Of a stretch of DNA of 9,260 bases, positions 1 to 9,260 are shown one piece after another. Under the pieces are notes generated by a model. That model worked only from the letters and a program-made list of their open reading frames with translations, ran no database searches and was not told where the DNA came from. This stretch comes from a virus (lineage: Duplodnaviria; Heunggongvirae; Uroviricota; Caudoviricetes). How positions within the stretch are numbered: position 1 is the stretch's first letter; every line of letters starts with the position of its first letter. Both the position numbers and the translations under genes were made by a program. The DNA lies in IMG/VR virus record IMGVR_UViG_2671180543_000004. One strand, written 5' to 3'.

Positions 1-192
1 GCAGACTTCACCGGAGTCGAACAACTGAACCAGTTTTTTCTGCCCGCTGTCACCCGGACGCCAGGCCAGCGTCGCCGAAGTATCACCAACGGATTTCTGC
101 CCCTGGGTTGTCGTTTTCCAGTCTGCATCTTTATCATCGAGATAAGTGTCATCTTCTGCATCAGCGGTCATTTCGCCAGGTTGCAGATCCTT
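1..192 (-). CDS. V: Major tail protein (lambda gpV-like); internal fragment, start hidden in the N-masked gap, 3' end beyond the window start
   Basis: Minus-strand translation of 192..1 in the frame with codons at 192-190 ... 3-1: [63 protein letters not shown] vs lambda gpV (recalled [62 protein letters not shown]), roughly lambda residues 43-106. The ORF track does not list it because both ends are cut. Confidence 0.8.
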
Positions 193-442
193 NNNNNNNN
201 NNNNNNNNNNNNNNNNNNNNNNNNNNNNNNNNNNNNNNNNNNNNNNNNNNNNNNNNNNNNNNNNNNNNNNNNNNNNNNNNNNNNNNNNNNNNNNNNNNNN
301 NNNNNNNNNNNNNNNNNNNNNNNNNNNNNNNNNNNNNNNNNNNNNNNNNNNNNNNNNNNNNNNNNNNNNNNNNNNNNNNNNNNNNNNNNNNNNNNNNNNN
401 NNNNNNNNNNNNNNNNNNNNNNNNNNNNNNNNNNNNNNNNNN

Positions 443-796
443 GGCCATCTCATTATCACGTTGATAGTTAAAACCGAGTGGGATCATGGTGTCGATGAGT
501 CCGGAAAGCACCGGAATATCCTTCATGGCCGGAAATATGGTGTTCTCCATCCACGTATCCAGCTCAGAATCCGGCGCCTGTGCACGGACGAAAACGGCAA
601 TATGCAGAACAGCCTGCCAGTCGTCCTCATCCGTCATTTTTCCGGTGTACTGCGCATCACTCAGCCACACCGCCACGGCGGGCAGTTCCTGCGCATCAAT
701 AAATGCCGGAAGCCCGTCAAAAAACGTGGCGCTGTCTCCACACTGTTCCCGAAGGCGTGCCAGCACGCTCTGACGGATTTGTGTGTGTCGGTTCAT
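443..796 (-). CDS. U: Tail terminator protein (lambda gpU-like); visible 5' part only, 3' end lies in the N-masked gap
   Basis: MNRHTQIRQSVLARL...GDSATFFDGLPAFIDAQELPAVAVWLSDAQYTG...DWQAVLHIAVFVRAQAPDSELDTWMENTIFPAMKDIP vs lambda gpU (MKHTELRAAVLDAL...TGATFFDGRPAVFDEADFPAVAVYLTGAEYTG...TWQAELHIEVFLPAQVPDSELDAWMESRIYPVMSDIP). 118 codons are visible before the N run. By lambda length the stop would fall near 400 inside the gap. The post-gap extension of the ORF to 161 is an artefact. Confidence 0.85.
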
Positions 797-3763: not shown

Positions 3764-5230
3764 TCAAACATGGCGGTTGTGGATGCAGAAACCGGTTCTG
3801 CCCTGCCTGAGGCTGCCGCCNNNNNNNNNNNNNNNNNNNNNNNNNNNNNNNNNNNNNNNNNNNNNNNNNNNNNNNNNNNNNNNNNNNNNNNNNNNNNNNN
3901 NNNNNNNNNNNNNNNNNNNNNNNNNNNNNNNNTTTTCAGCCTGCGCCTCTGCCCCTTTTGCCTCATCCAGGGCCATAATCTGATCACGAAGTGAGGGTCC
4001 GGCATTCGCCTGCGGTGAAGCAGCCAGAATCGGACGGGCTTTTTCCACCGTCATCTCCGGCATCGCCGCCAGCGTTGCCGCCAGTTGTTCACGTCCTTTC
4101 GCCTCTTCACATGCCATAATGCGATCGGCTTCACTCTGCGCAGATACACCAGATTGTTGCGGTGCCGCCACGGCCAGAATCGCCCGGGCCTGCTCAACGC
4201 TCATACCCTGTTGCCCTGCCAGCATCGTGGCCAGTTGTTCACGTCCTTTCGCTTCCTGACACGTCAGGATCCCCATCACTCGCTGGTTCTCCTGCGCGGC
4301 AGCCTCCGTTGCAGTTAATTGCGGCATAGTGCCTCCTGTATCGTGTGTGTTCAGCGTCGCAGCCATCACGCTGATGGCGTCCGACGCATTGATTAATTCA
4401 TCCGCCAGTTCGGCCTCAATACCGGACTGACCTTCAAAAACGGCGGCCTCTGTTCCCATAACCGCATCCACAGATAAACCGGTATACATCGCCACTTTTT
4501 CAGCAAACATCCGGCGCGCCGCATCAATGCGCTGCTGCATGTCCTGGCGAACCTTTGCTGGCAGGGATTCAAACTGATTGCCATCCACCTTGTGCGATCC
4601 GGCGTAAATCAGCGTGATATCCACACCGGCCTGTGCCAGATGGCCGGCATAGCTGACATGGCCCATCATCACCCCAATGGAGCCGATACGGGATGTCTGG
4701 GTAACCAGCCGTCGGGAGCAGGCCGATGCCAGTAACATGGCGGCTGAACAGGCCGTGTCATTGCACAGTGCCCAGACAGGCTTCAGCTGCCGGAGACGGT
4801 AAATCATGTCAGCGCAGTCAAACGCGCCGGTGGCCTGCCCGCCAGAACTGTCAATGTCCAGCAGTACGCCCCGTACCTGAGTGTCCGCCATTGCCTGCTG
4901 AAGACAGGCGACAATGCCGTCATAGCCAGTCATTCCGGAAAATGGCCGCATGCCACCCAGCCGGTGTACCAGCGTGCCGGTCACCGGCAGTACAGCAATA
5001 CCGTTCACCACCCGGTAAACACGGGCAGGTCGTTTGCCTCCGGCCATGTACTCGTCCGTTTCAGCCAGCATCCCGGGAGCGTCAAGCTGTACCTGCTGTT
5101 GCGGTACCGAAAGGCTTGCTGCGCCCATCTCACGCCCGAGCGCGCAAAAGAAAACCCGCGCATAGGCGGGCTCCAGAAGCAGCGGCTCATTGAATGCCGC
5201 AGCGATAATATGTGAAAGATTACGTCTCAC
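3764..5230 (-). CDS. C: Head protease / minor capsid protein C with C-terminal scaffold (Nu3-like) module; S49/ClpP-like peptidase family
   Basis: N-terminal two-thirds aligns with lambda gpC (AFNEPLLLEPAYARVFFCAL; NGIAVLPVTGTLV; KPVWALCNDTACSAAMLLASACSRRLVTQTSRIGSIGVMMGH; ITLIYAGSHKVDGN). GTG start at 5228-5230, preceded by AGGAG, overlapping the end of B as in lambda. The C-terminal region holds about three 50-aa repeats similar to the single lambda module RIMGILNCEEAHGREEQARVLAETPGMTV. The masked gap 3821-3932 interrupts the 3' end, so the true stop may be 3764 or, in the other frame, 3661. Confidence 0.88.
   Translation of the reverse strand: MRRNLSHIIAAAFNEPLLLEPAYARVFFCALGREMGAASLSVPQQQVQLDAPGMLAETDEYMAGGKRPARVYRVVNGIAVLPVTGTLVHRLGGMRPFSGMTGYDGIVACLQQAMADTQVRGVLLDIDSSGGQATGAFDCADMIYRLRQLKPVWALCNDTACSAAMLLASACSRRLVTQTSRIGSIGVMMGHVSYAGHLAQAGVDITLIYAGSHKVDGNQFESLPAKVRQDMQQRIDAARRMFAEKVAMYTGLSVDAVMGTEAAVFEGQSGIEAELADELINASDAISVMAATLNTHDTGGTMPQLTATEAAAQENQRVMGILTCQEAKGREQLATMLAGQQGMSVEQARAILAVAAPQQSGVSAQSEADRIMACEEAKGREQLAATLAAMPEMTVEKARPILAASPQANAGPSLRDQIMALDEAKGAEAQAEXXXXXXXXXXXXXXXXXXXXXXXXXXXXXXXXXXXXXXGGSLRQGRTGFCIHNRHV
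3933..4380 (-). repeat. Intragenic tandem direct repeat, 150-bp period, about 3 imperfect copies, within the 3' part of gene C
   Basis: Identical 23-mer gccagttgttcacgtcctttcgc at 4080-4102 and 4230-4252. gccagaatcg at 4023-4032 and 4173-4182. Both pairs are 150 bp apart. A more diverged copy sits at about 3933-4080. Protein-level repeats: RVMGILTCQEAKGREQLATMLAGQQGMSVEQARAILAVAAPQ / RIMACEEAKGREQLAATLAAMPEMTVEKARPILAASPQ / QIMALDEAKGAEAQAE. Confidence 0.8.
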
Positions 5231-6813
5231 GTGATGTTGTCTCCTCTTCCGGCCTGCGACTCTCCGCTATCTGCTGCTGATACGCCTGGGCTATCCACAC
5301 CGGACGTGAGAGTCCGGCTTTTTCGCGCTCTGCGGATTCCCTGACCTGCTGGCGGAAAATGTCCTGATAATCTTCGCCCATCAGTGCCAGTTCTTTCTCA
5401 TACGTGCTCAGTCCGGCCTCAATGCGCATCACCGATTCCTGGACCTCCTTGAGCCCGTCAATGGCCATTCTTCCGGAGCTAATCCACTCTGCCCGTGACC
5501 AGGCTGAACGCGCCTGGTAAAAATCAAAACGCGCCCGTGGCGGACGAATAATCCCCCGAAGAAGCGCCTCTTCCAGCCAGCAGGAAAACATCTGCGTGGC
5601 CAGCCGGGCCGCAATAAATTTTCGCCGCCCCATAAAATAGCGCCACGACTCATTGGCGGAGGCGCGGGCACTTGAGTAACTGACCTTCGAGTAATCACGG
5701 GACAACTGTTCGTAGGAAACGCCAAGACCGGCTGCAATATACCGCAGCAGCGCCTGTTCAAGCGCCGAAAATCCATTGTCTGAATCCTGCGCTGTCTGCA
5801 GGTTCAGCGCATCGCCAGGAAAAAAGGTGCGGAATTTTAACACCGCCCAGCGTCACGTTATTCGTGTCATACCAGCGGGTGAACTTCTCCAGAATATTAA
5901 TAAGCGGATTATCCTGCTGACCTTGCGGTGCCCCCGCGATATATTCAAATGCCTTTTCGGTATCAAGTTCACTTTCGATTGTGGCTGCATACATCGCCTT
6001 CACAATGGCCGACTGAAGCTGCGTGGCCTGCAGGGAGTCCAGCATCTTCATCCGCTCCATTACGCTGTAAAACTGATTAGCCCCACGGGTCTGCCCGTCC
6101 TCCACCGGCTCAAAAATATGCAGCATGGCCGGACGCCCGGTGGGAAGCTCACGCGGGATCCGCTCCCAGCGTCCGGCACCAGAGAACGGAAAATCATCCT
6201 CACAGATATGGTACGCAATCGCCCGCCCATACCGATCGACCTCAACCCCGGCCCGCAGAAAGTGGTTCCCCATACCGTGTCCTGGCGTGTCCACCCGTTT
6301 CGGACTCACGGCTTTAAAACGCGTACGGAATAACTGCGTGGTTTCCGTATCCCAGACCGGCTGCACAAAGATTTCGCCGTTAAAGGCATGCACGCCCACC
6401 CCTTCACGGATAAATTCCGTAAACGTGCGTTTCCCTTCCACGTCGATCTCGCCAAACATTCCTTCTGCGTATTCCGACCAGGCTGCTTCCACCTCCCCGA
6501 CAAAACTTTTTGCCGTGGTCTCCCGCATCCCCAGCCAACGCCAGTTCAGACGGTAGCTGATAAGAAACATGTGCCCGACGATATGATCCTTATGCAGGGC
6601 CACCGCATTAGCCGCGATACCGTTATTGCGCACCAGATCATCTGCCCGGGCATTCCCCAGACGCAATGCAGGCAACAGGGCCGCATCGGCACTCTGCGCC
6701 GGTGGTAACCACTCTGCCATTTGCCCGCCAAATCCTGCGCCGCCTCCGTTGTAGCTGAGACTCTCACGAAGCGGAACGCCGTTCACATCAATCAGGACAG
6801 GCGTTCGTTTCAT
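5220..6813 (-). pseudogene. B: Portal protein (lambda gpB-like) split by a +1 frameshift into two ORFs (6813..5758 N-terminal, 5843..5220 C-terminal)
   Basis: N-terminal ORF (MKRTPVLID...GGGAGFGGQ...GNARADDLVRNNG...FEPVEDGQTRGANQFYSVMERMKMLDSLQATQLQSAIVKAMYAATIESELD...LGGVKIPHLF) and C-terminal ORF (FFPGDALNLQTAQDSDNGFS...LLRYIAAGLGVSYEQLSR...SGRMAIDGLKEVQE...) both align with lambda gpB. The frames switch at the T6 run (A6 on plus strand, 5820-5825). Removing one T restores PHLFPGDALNLQ, cf. lambda PHLMPGDSLNLQ. Stop TAA at 5220-5222. Confidence 0.85.
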
Positions 6814-7013: not shown

Positions 7014-8924
7014 TCACTCCTCCGGACAGCTTCGCTGCCAGTTCTTCAAGGGTCGGTTGTGCAGTTGCATCCTTGCGGGATGCAACTGCACAGCCAGATC
7101 AAGTTGCCAGCGTTGCACGGACACACGTAATGCCGCATAGGCATACACCAGGCAGTCCAGCGCTTCGTTACGCCGCTTTTTGTTATCCCACAACAGACGC
7201 ATCTTTCCTTTTTCCCACTTTTCCACCAGTTCCTCCGCCACCAGTTGTTGTGCCTCTGTCTGCGAAAAAATCTCCGGATTATCAGGAAAGCGGATGGCAT
7301 ACGATGTGGCCTCATTCACAGGGGTGGGATCGGCCTTCATTCGGGCATAGAGAATTTCTTTTGCGGTATCCGTCCCCACCTCACACAGATACACACCCCG
7401 CTGATTGCGGGTTTTCGGCATGGTGATCACCGGCTTGCCATAGACAGAGGCACCTTTTACCGGCAGTACCCGGAAAATACCGTGTTTTTTTGACCTCTGA
7501 TACACGATTTCGCCATCGATCCCCCCGATATCCCAGCAGACACGGGAAATGGTCATTTCGGTACCGTCTGCATGGCGGTATTTTTTATTGATCGCCGCAT
7601 CCACACGTAACAGCGTCTCTTCCTCATCAGGACGTCCCATGATGATGATTTTATCCACCAGAAAGGCTTCCTCTCCCGGAGCCCACCCCCAGACATACAT
7701 CTCAAAACGGTTTCGCTGCGAGTCAATGCCCGCCGTCAGATAAACCACCCGGACAGGCACCGTTGCCGTGTAAGGCACAACCTTATCCATCAGTACCTGG
7801 TGATCGAGTTTTTCGCCCACGGCCTCTTCCCAGGTCTCGCCCAGCGTGGTGTTCACAAAAGTTTTCACGCCGTTGGGATCTTTCAGTGCATCCAGCCAGT
7901 CACAGACTATCTGTACCCTGGTGGTGAACGGACTGTACGCCGTCCATATATGGAAAGTGATGGAGCGCGGCGGCGGAATTTCATTACCCGAAGCACTGAA
8001 AAACGTCAGACCGTCACACGTCCACATCCCGGTATTGTCACAAATCCAGCGCCCCCCGGTCTGATCAAGTTCAGACTGACGGATCACGCAGCCATTATGT
8101 TCACACAGGTAATACACCGTTTCCGGTTTACCCTTCTCCCATTTCAGGCCAAACGACGTCGCATCATCGCCAAACTTCAGATACTGCTCCTCCCCGCAAT
8201 GAGGGCAAGGGACATAAAACCGCATGAAATGCGCAGATTCATTCGCAGCTTTTTCAATCTGACAGGAGCCTTTAATTTTTGGCGTTGAACCGCGTATGGA
8301 TTTTGGCCATACCGAACCTTCAATACGTTTATCGCCAAGCAGTGTTGGCGAACCTTCTTTTTCCACATCCGGTTCAAACGAGGAGAGTTCGTCATAGCAG
8401 ACCACATCGACAGATTTTTCACGGTAGTTTTTGGCAGCAGCACCACCCAAACACCAGAACCCCACACCAGAGGAAAAACGCTTCAGTGTGAGCGTATTAT
8501 CCCGGTGTTTCCGGCCCAGCCAGGGAGAAAGTTTTTTCAGGCAAGGAACATCACGAATTGTTGCTTCCACGTGAGACTTCATAAAATCTTCAGCAGCTGA
8601 GTCCGTCGGCTGAAAAAGAAGAGTGTTGCGGGATTTGTGCTCAATAAAATACCCGATCACACCAAGCACCATTTTTGTATAACCAACACGGGCAGATTTA
8701 ATCAGGTTAACTGTACGAATCTCGTCATTGCCCATGCAGTTCATGATGGCGACCTGAAACTGCAGCGTTTTCCATTCCCCCTCACCGTATGACGATTCTT
8801 TAGGCAGGTAATAATTTTGATCGGCCCATTCTACAGCCGTCACCGGCAATACCCTGACCAGTGGCTGCAGTGCGATAGTGACTGCCACCATCATATTACT
8901 CAGTTGTTGTTCTGATATATTCAT
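7014..8924 (-). CDS. A: Terminase large subunit (lambda gpA-like), 636 aa
   Basis: Alignable with lambda gpA along its whole length (MNISEQQ... vs lambda MNISNSQ...; TAVEWADQNYYLPKESSYGEGEWKTL vs PQTAVEWADANYYLPKESAYQEGRWETL; KSARVGYTK ATPase motif; FMRFYVPCPHCGEEQYLKFGD; YLTAGIDSQ; RRNEALDC). The ORF track extends to a TTG at 8981, but homology begins at ATG 8922-8924 (MNIS). Stop TGA at 7014-7016. Confidence 0.95.
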   Translation of the reverse strand: MNISEQQLSNMMVAVTIALQPLVRVLPVTAVEWADQNYYLPKESSYGEGEWKTLQFQVAIMNCMGNDEIRTVNLIKSARVGYTKMVLGVIGYFIEHKSRNTLLFQPTDSAAEDFMKSHVEATIRDVPCLKKLSPWLGRKHRDNTLTLKRFSSGVGFWCLGGAAAKNYREKSVDVVCYDELSSFEPDVEKEGSPTLLGDKRIEGSVWPKSIRGSTPKIKGSCQIEKAANESAHFMRFYVPCPHCGEEQYLKFGDDATSFGLKWEKGKPETVYYLCEHNGCVIRQSELDQTGGRWICDNTGMWTCDGLTFFSASGNEIPPPRSITFHIWTAYSPFTTRVQIVCDWLDALKDPNGVKTFVNTTLGETWEEAVGEKLDHQVLMDKVVPYTATVPVRVVYLTAGIDSQRNRFEMYVWGWAPGEEAFLVDKIIIMGRPDEEETLLRVDAAINKKYRHADGTEMTISRVCWDIGGIDGEIVYQRSKKHGIFRVLPVKGASVYGKPVITMPKTRNQRGVYLCEVGTDTAKEILYARMKADPTPVNEATSYAIRFPDNPEIFSQTEAQQLVAEELVEKWEKGKMRLLWDNKKRRNEALDCLVYAYAALRVSVQRWQLDLAVQLHPARMQLHNRPLKNWQRSCPEE

Positions 8925-9219
8925 CGAGTAAATCCGGTAATTTATCCCCCGCACGCGCGCACTGATTCGCTCCCTTAGCAATAAGGATTTTCAGATGATC
9001 AATATGACGCGGCGTTAAATCCGGGAACTGTCGTTGCATGGACAAAGGAATGGAGTCAAGCGTACTGGATAAAGCCATCGCCAGCTTACTAAGGGCAAAA
9101 ATACAAAATCCGGTATCGATAAGATTTCCTTTTGACACCTGATTTTTTAACTGCTGTGCGACAGCCTGTTCTGCGGTCAGTTCCCATCTGGCAATGAGTA
9201 GTTTGAGGTGTACTGGCAA
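8896..9219 (-). CDS. nu1: Terminase small subunit (lambda Nu1-like), C-terminal portion only; possibly N-terminally truncated
   Basis: Translation ...TGFCIFALSKLAMALSSTLDSIPLSMQRQFPDLTPRHIDHLKILIAKGANQ...LPDLLDEYI aligns with the C-terminal half of lambda Nu1 (recalled ...TAFCTFVLSRIAGEIASILDGLPLSVQRRFPELENRHVDFLKRDIIKAMNK...IPGLLSEYI). Stop TAA at 8896-8898. The 3' end overlaps the A start (8924) by 29 nt, as in lambda. The ORF opens with TTG at 9217-9219 and an in-frame TAG lies at 9229-9231, so the N-terminal domain is not encoded in this frame. Confidence 0.75.
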   Translation of the reverse strand: MPVHLKLLIARWELTAEQAVAQQLKNQVSKGNLIDTGFCIFALSKLAMALSSTLDSIPLSMQRQFPDLTPRHIDHLKILIAKGANQCARAGDKLPDLLDEYIRTTTE

Positions 9220-9260
9220 TAGCGGACACTACCATTTGTTCTTTTTTTAAGCAGCCATCT

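Follow-up and report, generated by a model that had tools for sequence, protein, structure and literature searches.

An IS600 insertion very probably truncated the Nu1-type small terminase gene of a decaying lambda-like prophage in Shigella flexneri

The small terminase of phage lambda, Nu1, uses its C-terminal part for oligomerisation (self-association) and for binding of the large terminase, gpA. Nu1 homologues are also left in defective lambdoid prophages that do not package DNA, such as nohA in Qin and nohD in DLP12, both cryptic prophages of E. coli K-12. In these prophages, the Nu1 homologue survives and the downstream head genes are deleted. IS600 is among the insertion sequences that have expanded in Shigella, and 22% of the S. 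flexneri pseudogenes come directly from IS insertion (PMC7373316). A further report describes an IS600 insertion in lacZ of STEC O121:H19, together with its excision and reversion (PMC9397093).

The window (the whole stretch of 9,260 nucleotides that was analysed) was identified by sequence comparison as the part of a Shigella flexneri prophage, lambda-like and defective, that contains the head genes. It is a draft sequence with two runs of N, at 193–442 and 3821–3932, and all features described below lie on its minus strand. The gene order after the large terminase is that of lambda, with homologues of W, portal, protease, D, and E. As in lambda, a Nu1-type sequence lies directly upstream of, and overlaps, a gpA-type large terminase gene, and its C-terminal region aligns with that of lambda Nu1; unlike in lambda, the N-terminal third is missing. 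Compared with nohA and nohD, it is the head genes that survive here, whereas the 5′ end of Nu1 and cos have been lost.

The remnant of the small terminase gene occupies positions 8896–9203 and encodes codons 68–169 of 169, ending with a TAA stop at 8896–8898. The sequence-only reading of this DNA had described a Nu1-like small terminase without an in-frame N-terminal region, and the Pfam, tblastn, and alignment results agreed with that description. The HMM search of the 107-aa product against terminase small-subunit families, proposed in the same reading, returned Phage_Nu1 (PF07471) with an E-value of 5.6e-19 and 68.8 bits (Pfam cutoff of 30 bits), and only the C-terminal part of the profile was matched (positions 85–163 of 164). 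The remnant also matched PHROG phrog_57, the full-length small terminase family, with an E-value of 1.1e-37 over profile positions 87–189 of 199. With the intact 169-aa small terminase of an E. coli prophage as the tblastn query, residues 68–169 were located at 9204–8899 with 99% identity over 102 residues. Residues ~86–181 of lambda Nu1, its C-terminal half, aligned to the remnant with many invariant positions. Judged by these matches, the assignment to Nu1 is far above chance. The N-terminal DNA-binding domain is absent from the same gene: codons 1–67 are missing, and from 9204 onward the sequence is IS600 instead, so that codon 68 (AAA, Lys) begins with the terminal A of the element at 9204.

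The break point and the identity of the adjoining element can be read directly from the window. Positions 9204–9260 represent the right end of IS600, an IS3 family element that is oriented like the terminase genes. All 57 bases agree with annotated copies of IS600, and the 100% match to such copies spans 9197–9260. The terminal inverted repeat ends in ...GTACACCTCA at 9204; farther into the element, the transposase gene closes at 9258–9247 with its final three codons and stop (ATG GCT GCT TAA). In the RefSeq annotation of E. coli, the matching copies are called "IS3-like element IS600 family transposase", and the end of the CDS equals position 9247 of the window. This end sequence is present in 2770 of 5426 E. 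coli genomes, at up to 43 places per genome, on both chromosomes and plasmids. A megablast search with positions 8700–9260 yielded 854 E. coli records that cover 8700–9204 and none that continue beyond, and the search with the whole window likewise ended at 9204. A look for insertion-sequence ends upstream had been recommended, and truncation in a degraded prophage by an insertion just upstream had been among the explanations offered; the IS600 right end in the 57 bases past the break bears this explanation out.

The properties of the element in related loci are those of IS600. It has TG...CA ends and imperfect terminal inverted repeats (the two ends compared read TGAGGTAGCCTGAG... and TGAGGTGTACTGGC...), and it is 1264 bp long (L008, 8753–10016; expected length ~1.26 kb) with a two-part transposase, orfA and orfB, for which RefSeq notes a "programmed frameshift"; of this transposase, the window itself contains no more than the final three codons and the stop. 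At the junction, L007–L011, L013, and L015 have the element in its full length of 1264 bp. In L003, L004, and L012 (two genome records, L004 and L012 being one and the same), another IS3-family element has entered the IS600 copy and is flanked by a duplication of CAA; from its sequence, we take it to be IS629. The 3-bp target-site duplication was observed directly: AAC at 9201–9203 is its right-hand copy, and in L014 and L016 gaagagaaac leads up to the element, which begins TGAGGTAGCC, and the element ends CACCTCA ahead of the right flank aactactc. A second IS600 copy in the same loci is flanked by GTC duplications. The uninterrupted Nu1 gene in L001 reads gaagagaaactactc. Nothing in kind separates this element from IS600. 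In the group of loci to which the window belongs by sequence, its flanks are unmatched, GGG and AAC.

The 107-aa ORF, called mechanically at 8896–9219, is a chimera of five IS600 codons (M P V H L, 9205–9219) and 102 Nu1 codons. Its TTG start (9217–9219) lies within the IS600 inverted repeat, so it is only by chance that the insertion gave the ORF a start there; genuine Nu1 sequence begins at 9203 and not at the TTG. What had been read as the C-terminal part of a Nu1 homologue is therefore the Nu1 C-terminal half, with the exception of these first five codons. Translation of the minus strand from 8896 to 9258 gives MAA*KKNKW*CPLLPVHLKLLIARWELTAEQ...EYIRTTTE*, in which the in-frame TAG at 9229–9231 stands where it had been reported, with three codons (TGT CCG CTA) between it and the TTG. 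This TAG is IS600 sequence and not a mutation of Nu1. The other two frames of 9220–9260 are also without Nu1-like sequence, as had been stated, and these bases too are IS600. A promoter scan at the IS600/Nu1 junction revealed no promoter-like site, no obvious ribosome-binding site precedes the TTG, and in L008 the one promoter-like site on the forward strand belongs to IS600 itself and lies at the IS left end. The apparent 107-aa gene simply runs on from the IS end into Nu1 sequence; it is most likely a non-functional pseudogene, and the Nu1 remnant itself is probably non-functional.

Full-length relatives of the gene show what the remnant lacks. A 169-aa small terminase is found at 95–99% identity in E. 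coli prophages and in PhiR12_1, whose record names E. coli K-12 MG1655 as the host; the full length of 169 aa, N-terminal domain included, is encoded by the PhiR12 series of phage genomes and by prophages of E. coli in their hundreds. The family phrog_57 matches residues 1–169 of this intact protein with an E-value of 1.8e-54 (profile positions 12–189), and the N-terminal 70 residues are unmatched by the Phage_Nu1 Pfam profile. A search of solved structures with the intact protein returned no terminase or Nu1 chain and only chance-level hits (E ~0.5, to BUD31). A weak alignment with lambda Nu1 suggests a winged-helix fold for the missing part. In comparison with lambda, the cos region of these relatives has three CCGGACAT repeats in place of the lambda cosB sequence, which suggests that their DNA-binding specificity differs from that of lambda.

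Shigella flexneri SFBU1023 and the "E. coli" genome ECMA0423 contain the exact 40-nt junction of the window. The same junction is present in Shigella flexneri genomes and in 0 of 5,426 complete E. coli genomes, and it recurs without change in at least 11 genomes that were assembled independently and are mostly complete. Two arrangements of the locus were observed directly. In L014 (CP000266.1) and L016, a simple insertion is kept, which consists of a cos-like site, Nu1 codons 1–67 (100% identical to the intact protein), AAC, IS600, AAC, and codon 68 onward. In L007–L013 and L015, the arrangement is a deleted one, in which Rz codon 134 (cgggacggg) adjoins the IS600 left end; L003 shows the same abutment of Rz and IS600 as far as its 8-kb locus reaches. 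The complete genomes CP012735.1 and CP012140.1 are examples of this deleted arrangement. The IS600 flanks of the deleted arrangement differ (GGG vs. AAC), and this mismatch points to a secondary deletion or to recombination between IS copies. Positions 4530–8751 of L008 equal positions 1–4221 of L014 at 99.86% identity, and 3217 bp of L014-equivalent DNA are missing.

The two arrangements also differ in cos. A cos-like core (CACTATTTATGAAAATTTTTCGG), exact in PhiR12_1, is present in L001, L006, L014, and L016 and in 0 of 8 deleted-arrangement loci within 10 kb. Neither lambda cosN (GGGCGGCGACCT) nor a cos-like core was found in the window or in the deleted-arrangement loci, and the window thus holds no cos upstream of the gene. 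In the eight 20-kb loci of the deleted arrangement, the search within 10 kb found neither the Nu1 N-terminus nor cos. On that scale, the loss of the Nu1 5′ end and cos appears to be a deletion, with an inversion to a distant site as a formal alternative. An inverted Rz 3′ fragment in L008 (1413–1648) was considered as a sign of an inversion that moved the Rz 3′ end and was rejected: it overlaps sequence that is retained at the junction and is only 98.7% identical. This fragment most likely belongs to another prophage remnant.

Two further head genes are frameshifted. The gpA-type large terminase gene (7014–8924, 636 codons) starts at 8924 and so shares 29 nt with the Nu1 remnant, which ends at 8896; it was assigned by Pfam (GpA_ATPase, E = 3.3e-53; GpA_nuclease, E = 1.1e-67) and tblastn. 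A 1-bp net deletion near 7087 puts its last ~28 codons out of frame (−1); by tblastn, residues 1–612 are in one frame and residues 615–642 in another. The portal gene (5220–6813) is split into two ORFs by a +1 frameshift, an extra A in the A-run at 5820–5825 (A6 here vs. A5 in intact relatives), and tblastn placed residues 1–331 and 325–530 in different frames. The same 351-aa portal fragment was found in all fetched Shigella loci in which the portal was called (7/10). The junction of the window and both frameshifts recur identically in independent complete genomes. Two other candidate signs of decay were rejected as artefacts of the N-runs in the window: the S49 protease/scaffold gene seemed to change frame, and a U-like ORF of 211 aa seemed to be fused.

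Together, these observations make it very probable that an IS600 insertion truncated Nu1 in a decaying lambda-like prophage and that a second, IS600-associated event took place in the window's lineage. A frameshift or a sequencing or assembly error near 9220–9235 had been raised as another explanation, in which an intact N-terminal domain would lie hidden immediately upstream. The window is indeed a draft with two N-runs and ends only 41 nt past the ORF start, but the three frames upstream of 9204 show no Nu1 likeness, the 57 bases are 100% IS600, the same junction recurs in those independently assembled genomes, and in L014 and L016 codons 1–67 lie across the IS, the 3-bp duplication being clean. 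Since the IS600 identity and the target-site duplication refute a hidden domain, we leave it next to no probability. A phage that naturally uses a ~100-aa small terminase, with DNA recognition left to the large subunit or a different protein, is just as hard to credit. Gene callers routinely call the 107-aa ORF, and PHROGs includes a family, phrog_1790 (114 positions, "terminase small subunit"), whose coverage is restricted to this C-terminal half. This family was most simply seeded by split genes like the IS600-split Nu1, because the N-terminal half has a separate family of its own, phrog_7289. Moreover, the equally short terminases that would be expected in related functional phages were not what the relatives showed: in the PhiR12-series phages, the closest deposited ones, as in over 850 prophage copies of E. 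coli, the protein is the 169-aa form. The homology breaks exactly at the IS end, the first five ORF codons are IS600 sequence, codons 1–67 sit beyond the IS in two Shigella loci, cos is absent in the window's group of loci, and portal and large terminase are frameshifted.

The window stops 57 bases into IS600, and what probably lies on the far side of the element was deduced from near-identical genomes. Because the window ends inside the IS, it does not itself distinguish the two arrangements, and its genome could carry the simple insertion known from L014 and L016, with the gene split and the Nu1 5′ end and a retained cos just past IS600. This is unlikely, as the window has the 1-bp large terminase deletion, which was otherwise seen only in deleted-arrangement loci (L014 and L016 have an intact 642-aa gene), and it matches those loci at 99.9–100% identity with 0–5 mismatches, vs. 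99.0–99.8% with 11–24 mismatches plus gaps for L014 and L016. We infer that the genome of the window has the deleted arrangement. Even less likely is a role for the 107-aa ORF as a decoy subunit that, expressed by IS600 read-through or from the phage late transcript, would capture the large terminase when lambdoid phages superinfect; if so, the chimeric ORF would persist in S. flexneri by poisoning terminase assembly of incoming phages, a form of superinfection interference. The remnant does retain the whole region used in lambda for self-association and gpA binding, and the ORF is intact, 99% identical to functional relatives, and kept in many S. flexneri genomes. However, the junction offers neither a promoter-like site nor an obvious ribosome-binding site before the TTG, high identity is expected of a recent pseudogene, and the decay of neighbouring genes argues against selection on the block.

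The truncation by IS600 very probably proceeded as follows, with the order of events deduced. The 1264-bp IS600 transposed into the Nu1-type gene between codons 67 and 68, separating the N-terminal DNA-binding part from the C-terminal part. In the window's lineage, an IS600-associated adjacent deletion, or recombination with another IS600 copy, then probably removed the DNA from Rz codon 135 to the IS left end, including cos and Nu1 codons 1–67. The prophage would thus be left without an intact terminase recognition subunit and without cos beside its packaging genes, and it has also gained the portal and large terminase frameshifts. Insertion and cos-removing deletion would have fixed it in the chromosome as a non-packageable remnant. 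The case is an ordinary one of IS-driven prophage decay. In the report on lacZ of STEC O121:H19 (PMC9397093), the same element inactivated a gene by simple insertion, and the target gene and the host are different.

For Shigella biology, this adds one more documented case of IS600-driven prophage decay, and it matters little beyond annotation hygiene. Many genomes are annotated with a gene for the 107-aa product. Fragment families and 107-aa calls can mislead searches for "short" small terminases. The chimeric product is indexed in 362 blocks of a public protein collection, and IS600 lies directly upstream of it in all 10 places among the matches listed.

Every phage gene of the window lies on the minus strand, and the frame of the small terminase translates over 8896-9258 as MAA*KKNKW*CPLLPVHLKLLIARWELTAEQAVAQQLKN...DEYIRTTTE*. 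Three codons (TGT CCG CTA) separate the in-frame TAG (9229-9231, minus strand) from the TTG (9217-9219, minus strand) that opens a mechanical 107-aa ORF (8896-9219, minus strand). The product matched Pfam Phage_Nu1 (E=5.6e-19) over profile positions 85-163 of 164 only, and it could be aligned to the C-terminal half of lambda Nu1; translation of the two other frames upstream gave nothing Nu1-like. The translation, the profile match and the lambda alignment therefore bear out the sequence-only observation, and the ORF is not there by chance. An intact E. coli relative (L001) encodes a 169-aa 'terminase small subunit' (L001 3197-3706, WP_074132335.1), and its residues 68-169 were placed by tblastn at window 9204-8899 with 99% identity. 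At the same place, the uninterrupted gene reads gaagagaaactactcattgcc and the window ...cacctca|aactactcattgcc. The 107-aa ORF is thus a fusion in which five codons from IS600 (M P V H L) precede Nu1 codons 68-169.

When 8700-9260 was searched by megablast in 5,426 complete E. coli genomes, 854 records covered 8700-9204 and none went further, while the last ~57 bases matched a repeat with up to 43 copies per genome, chromosomal and plasmid. Searched alone, 9195-9260 matched sequence that carries the annotation 'IS3-like element IS600 family transposase'. The IS600 copy of CFSAN004176 is 100% identical across window 9197-9260, and its transposase CDS terminates at the base equivalent to 9247, so the MAA* of the translation is the transposase C-terminus. 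The IS600 end at 9204 reads ...GTACACCTCA (plus strand, TGAGGTGTAC...) and shows the TG...CA terminus typical for IS3-family elements.

Several explanations had been offered for the missing N-terminal domain, and an insertion just upstream in a degraded prophage is the one upheld, as the upstream bases are IS600 and phage homology stops at 9204. A sequencing error or frameshift hiding the domain was rejected because the TAG and the TTG are both IS600 bases. It had also been proposed that DNA recognition is supplied differently in this phage; this reading was rejected, and nothing supports a naturally short form. The related deposited genomes of the PhiR12 series (host, per record, E. coli K-12 MG1655 or E. 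coli C) have a 'terminase subunit Nu1' annotated at 169 aa, with 95% identity to the E. coli protein. The full-length small terminase family phrog_57 likewise matched residues 1-169 of the intact protein (E=1.8e-54).

By exact search, the 40-nt junction is present in Shigella flexneri SFBU1023 and in ECMA0423 (labelled E. coli). The exact 107-aa product is indexed in 362 blocks of a public collection, a lookup showing that many public genomes already contain the IS600/Nu1 junction and have it annotated. Ten 20-kb loci were examined among the product matches listed, and two arrangements were found. L014 (CP000266.1) and L016 carry a simple insertion, in which Nu1 codons 1-67 (100% identity to the intact protein) lie on the far side of IS600, after a cos-like site; phrog_57 matched the orphan N-terminal fragment of L014 (E=1.5e-11). 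Their left junction, ...gaagagaaac|TGAGGTAGCC..., is the IS600 left end, the right junction is ...CACCTCA|aactactc..., and the flanking AAC is a clean 3-bp target duplication. In the other eight loci (L007-L013 and L015), a 1264-bp IS600 has the same Nu1 junction on its right side, but its left end abuts the Rz spanin gene at codon 134 (...cgggacggg|TGAGG, the stop codon coming from the IS), and the flanks are mismatched (GGG vs. AAC). Neither the Nu1 N-terminus nor the cos-like core was found within 10 kb in these eight 20-kb loci. L012 and L004 come from one record; L003 and L004, the loci of SFBU1023 and ECMA0423, are 100% identical where they overlap.

Since L008 4530-8751 equals L014 1-4221 at 99.86%, the two arrangements are the same prophage, the deleted one being without 3,217 bp of L014-equivalent DNA that includes a second, inverted IS600 copy. 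In the simplest history, IS600 inserted once into Nu1, and one lineage then lost DNA either by a deletion next to the element or by recombination of two of its copies, mechanisms that the data fit equally. The window differs from the deleted-arrangement loci by 0-5 mismatches (99.9-100% identity) vs. 11-24 mismatches plus gaps for L014 and L016, and shares with the former a 1-bp deletion in the large terminase, which in L014 and L016 has its intact 642 codons. Because the window ends within IS600, we infer its arrangement from this identity and common deletion, and its own genome very probably has the deleted one.

Further rearrangements were observed around the junction. In L004 1936-3227 (also in L003 and L012; two genomes), a second IS3-family element, which we take to be IS629, interrupts the junction IS600 after orfA and is flanked by a CAA duplication. 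Another IS3-family element interrupts the IS600 copy of L014 and L016 at a different place, and the nested insertions are independent. At the left edge of the prophage, L008 1413-1648 is a second, inverted Rz/Rz1 3' end fragment (98.7% identity to L014 4046-4281), with a host VTT-domain gene on one side and another IS on the other. L007, L009 and L015 carry a primase gene at this position, a pattern suggesting IS-mediated inversions around the prophage.

The intact relatives share a lambda-like cos region (L001 3790-3935, minus strand; L014 7005-7160; L017 1900-2140). The 12-nt GGGCGGCGACCT of lambda is unchanged in PhiR12_1; in the E. coli and Shigella prophages the sequence is GGGCGGGAGCGG. 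Three CCGGACAT repeats, one inverted, lie between the lambda-like cosN region and the small terminase start. In the intact relatives, the N-terminal 70 residues lie outside the match to the Pfam Nu1 profile, and searching solved structures by sequence gave chance matches only; the lost domain, which aligns weakly to lambda Nu1, would thus seem to be a variant of lambda's with diverged specificity. The repeats and the unmatched N-terminus suggest that cosB and the small terminase form a specificity pair in the intact relatives that differs from lambda's.

Decay was also seen elsewhere in the window. The portal gene has an extra A (5820-5825; A6 vs. A5 in intact E. coli relatives) and is thereby divided into ORFs of 351 aa and 207 aa. 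The same 351-aa fragment occurs in all Shigella loci with a portal gene called (7 of the 10 fetched), so the extra A probably dates back as far as the IS600 insertion. The large terminase gene (7014-8924, minus strand; Pfam GpA_ATPase and GpA_nuclease) has a small patch near 7084-7087 (CCGCCAGC to AACTGC) that shifts the last ~28 codons. Window 7061-7089 reads GCAGTTGCATCC TTGCG GGATGCAACTGC, a perfect 12-bp palindrome, vs. a right arm of GGATGCCGCCAGC in intact relatives. This clustered change (net -1 bp) resembles the 'correction' of a quasipalindrome by template switching, and it is found in the deleted-arrangement Shigella loci and missing from L014 and L016.

Relative to the window, SFBU1023 and ECMA0423 carry a 1-bp deletion and a 1-bp insertion in the large terminase (8198 and 8326, 128 nt apart), which break the ORF at 220 aa counted from an upstream TTG; the gene called in L012 is 10296-10901 (201 aa). 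These indels are either real further decay or an error common to both assemblies. The FI-like and FII-like head-completion genes (1367-2139) have 54-65% protein identity to E. coli prophage L006, which is otherwise 96-99% identical; they are a mosaic replacement inside the head module. N-runs at 193-442 (250 bases) and 3821-3932 (112 bases; only 48 nt in complete genomes) make two further genes look broken, and disruption of the protease/scaffold gene (ORF 3764-5230, minus strand, 488 aa) and the fused U-like ORF (161-796, minus strand, 211 aa) were rejected as artefacts of the second and first run, respectively. The window seems to come from a draft scaffold that ends in the IS600 repeat.

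The recognition domain and cos are lost, the portal gene is split and the end of the large terminase is out of frame, so the block is best regarded as a prophage remnant that does not package DNA. No promoter-like site was found at the IS/Nu1 junction, and the remnant could be transcribed by read-through only; that the orphan C-terminal domain acts as a decoy is very unlikely, and nothing supports it. IS600 is one of the insertion sequences that have expanded in Shigella and enteroinvasive E. coli, and ~22% of S. flexneri pseudogenes are directly attributed to IS insertion (PMC7373316). The IS600-truncated Nu1 is a textbook outcome, already known in kind. In PHROGs, phrog_57 stands beside two half families: phrog_1790, annotated 'terminase small subunit', represents the C-terminal half in 114 positions and matches window 8896-9219, and phrog_7289, of 'unknown function', represents the N-terminal half in 91 positions and matches L014 7235-7447. 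Split pseudogenes may have seeded both.
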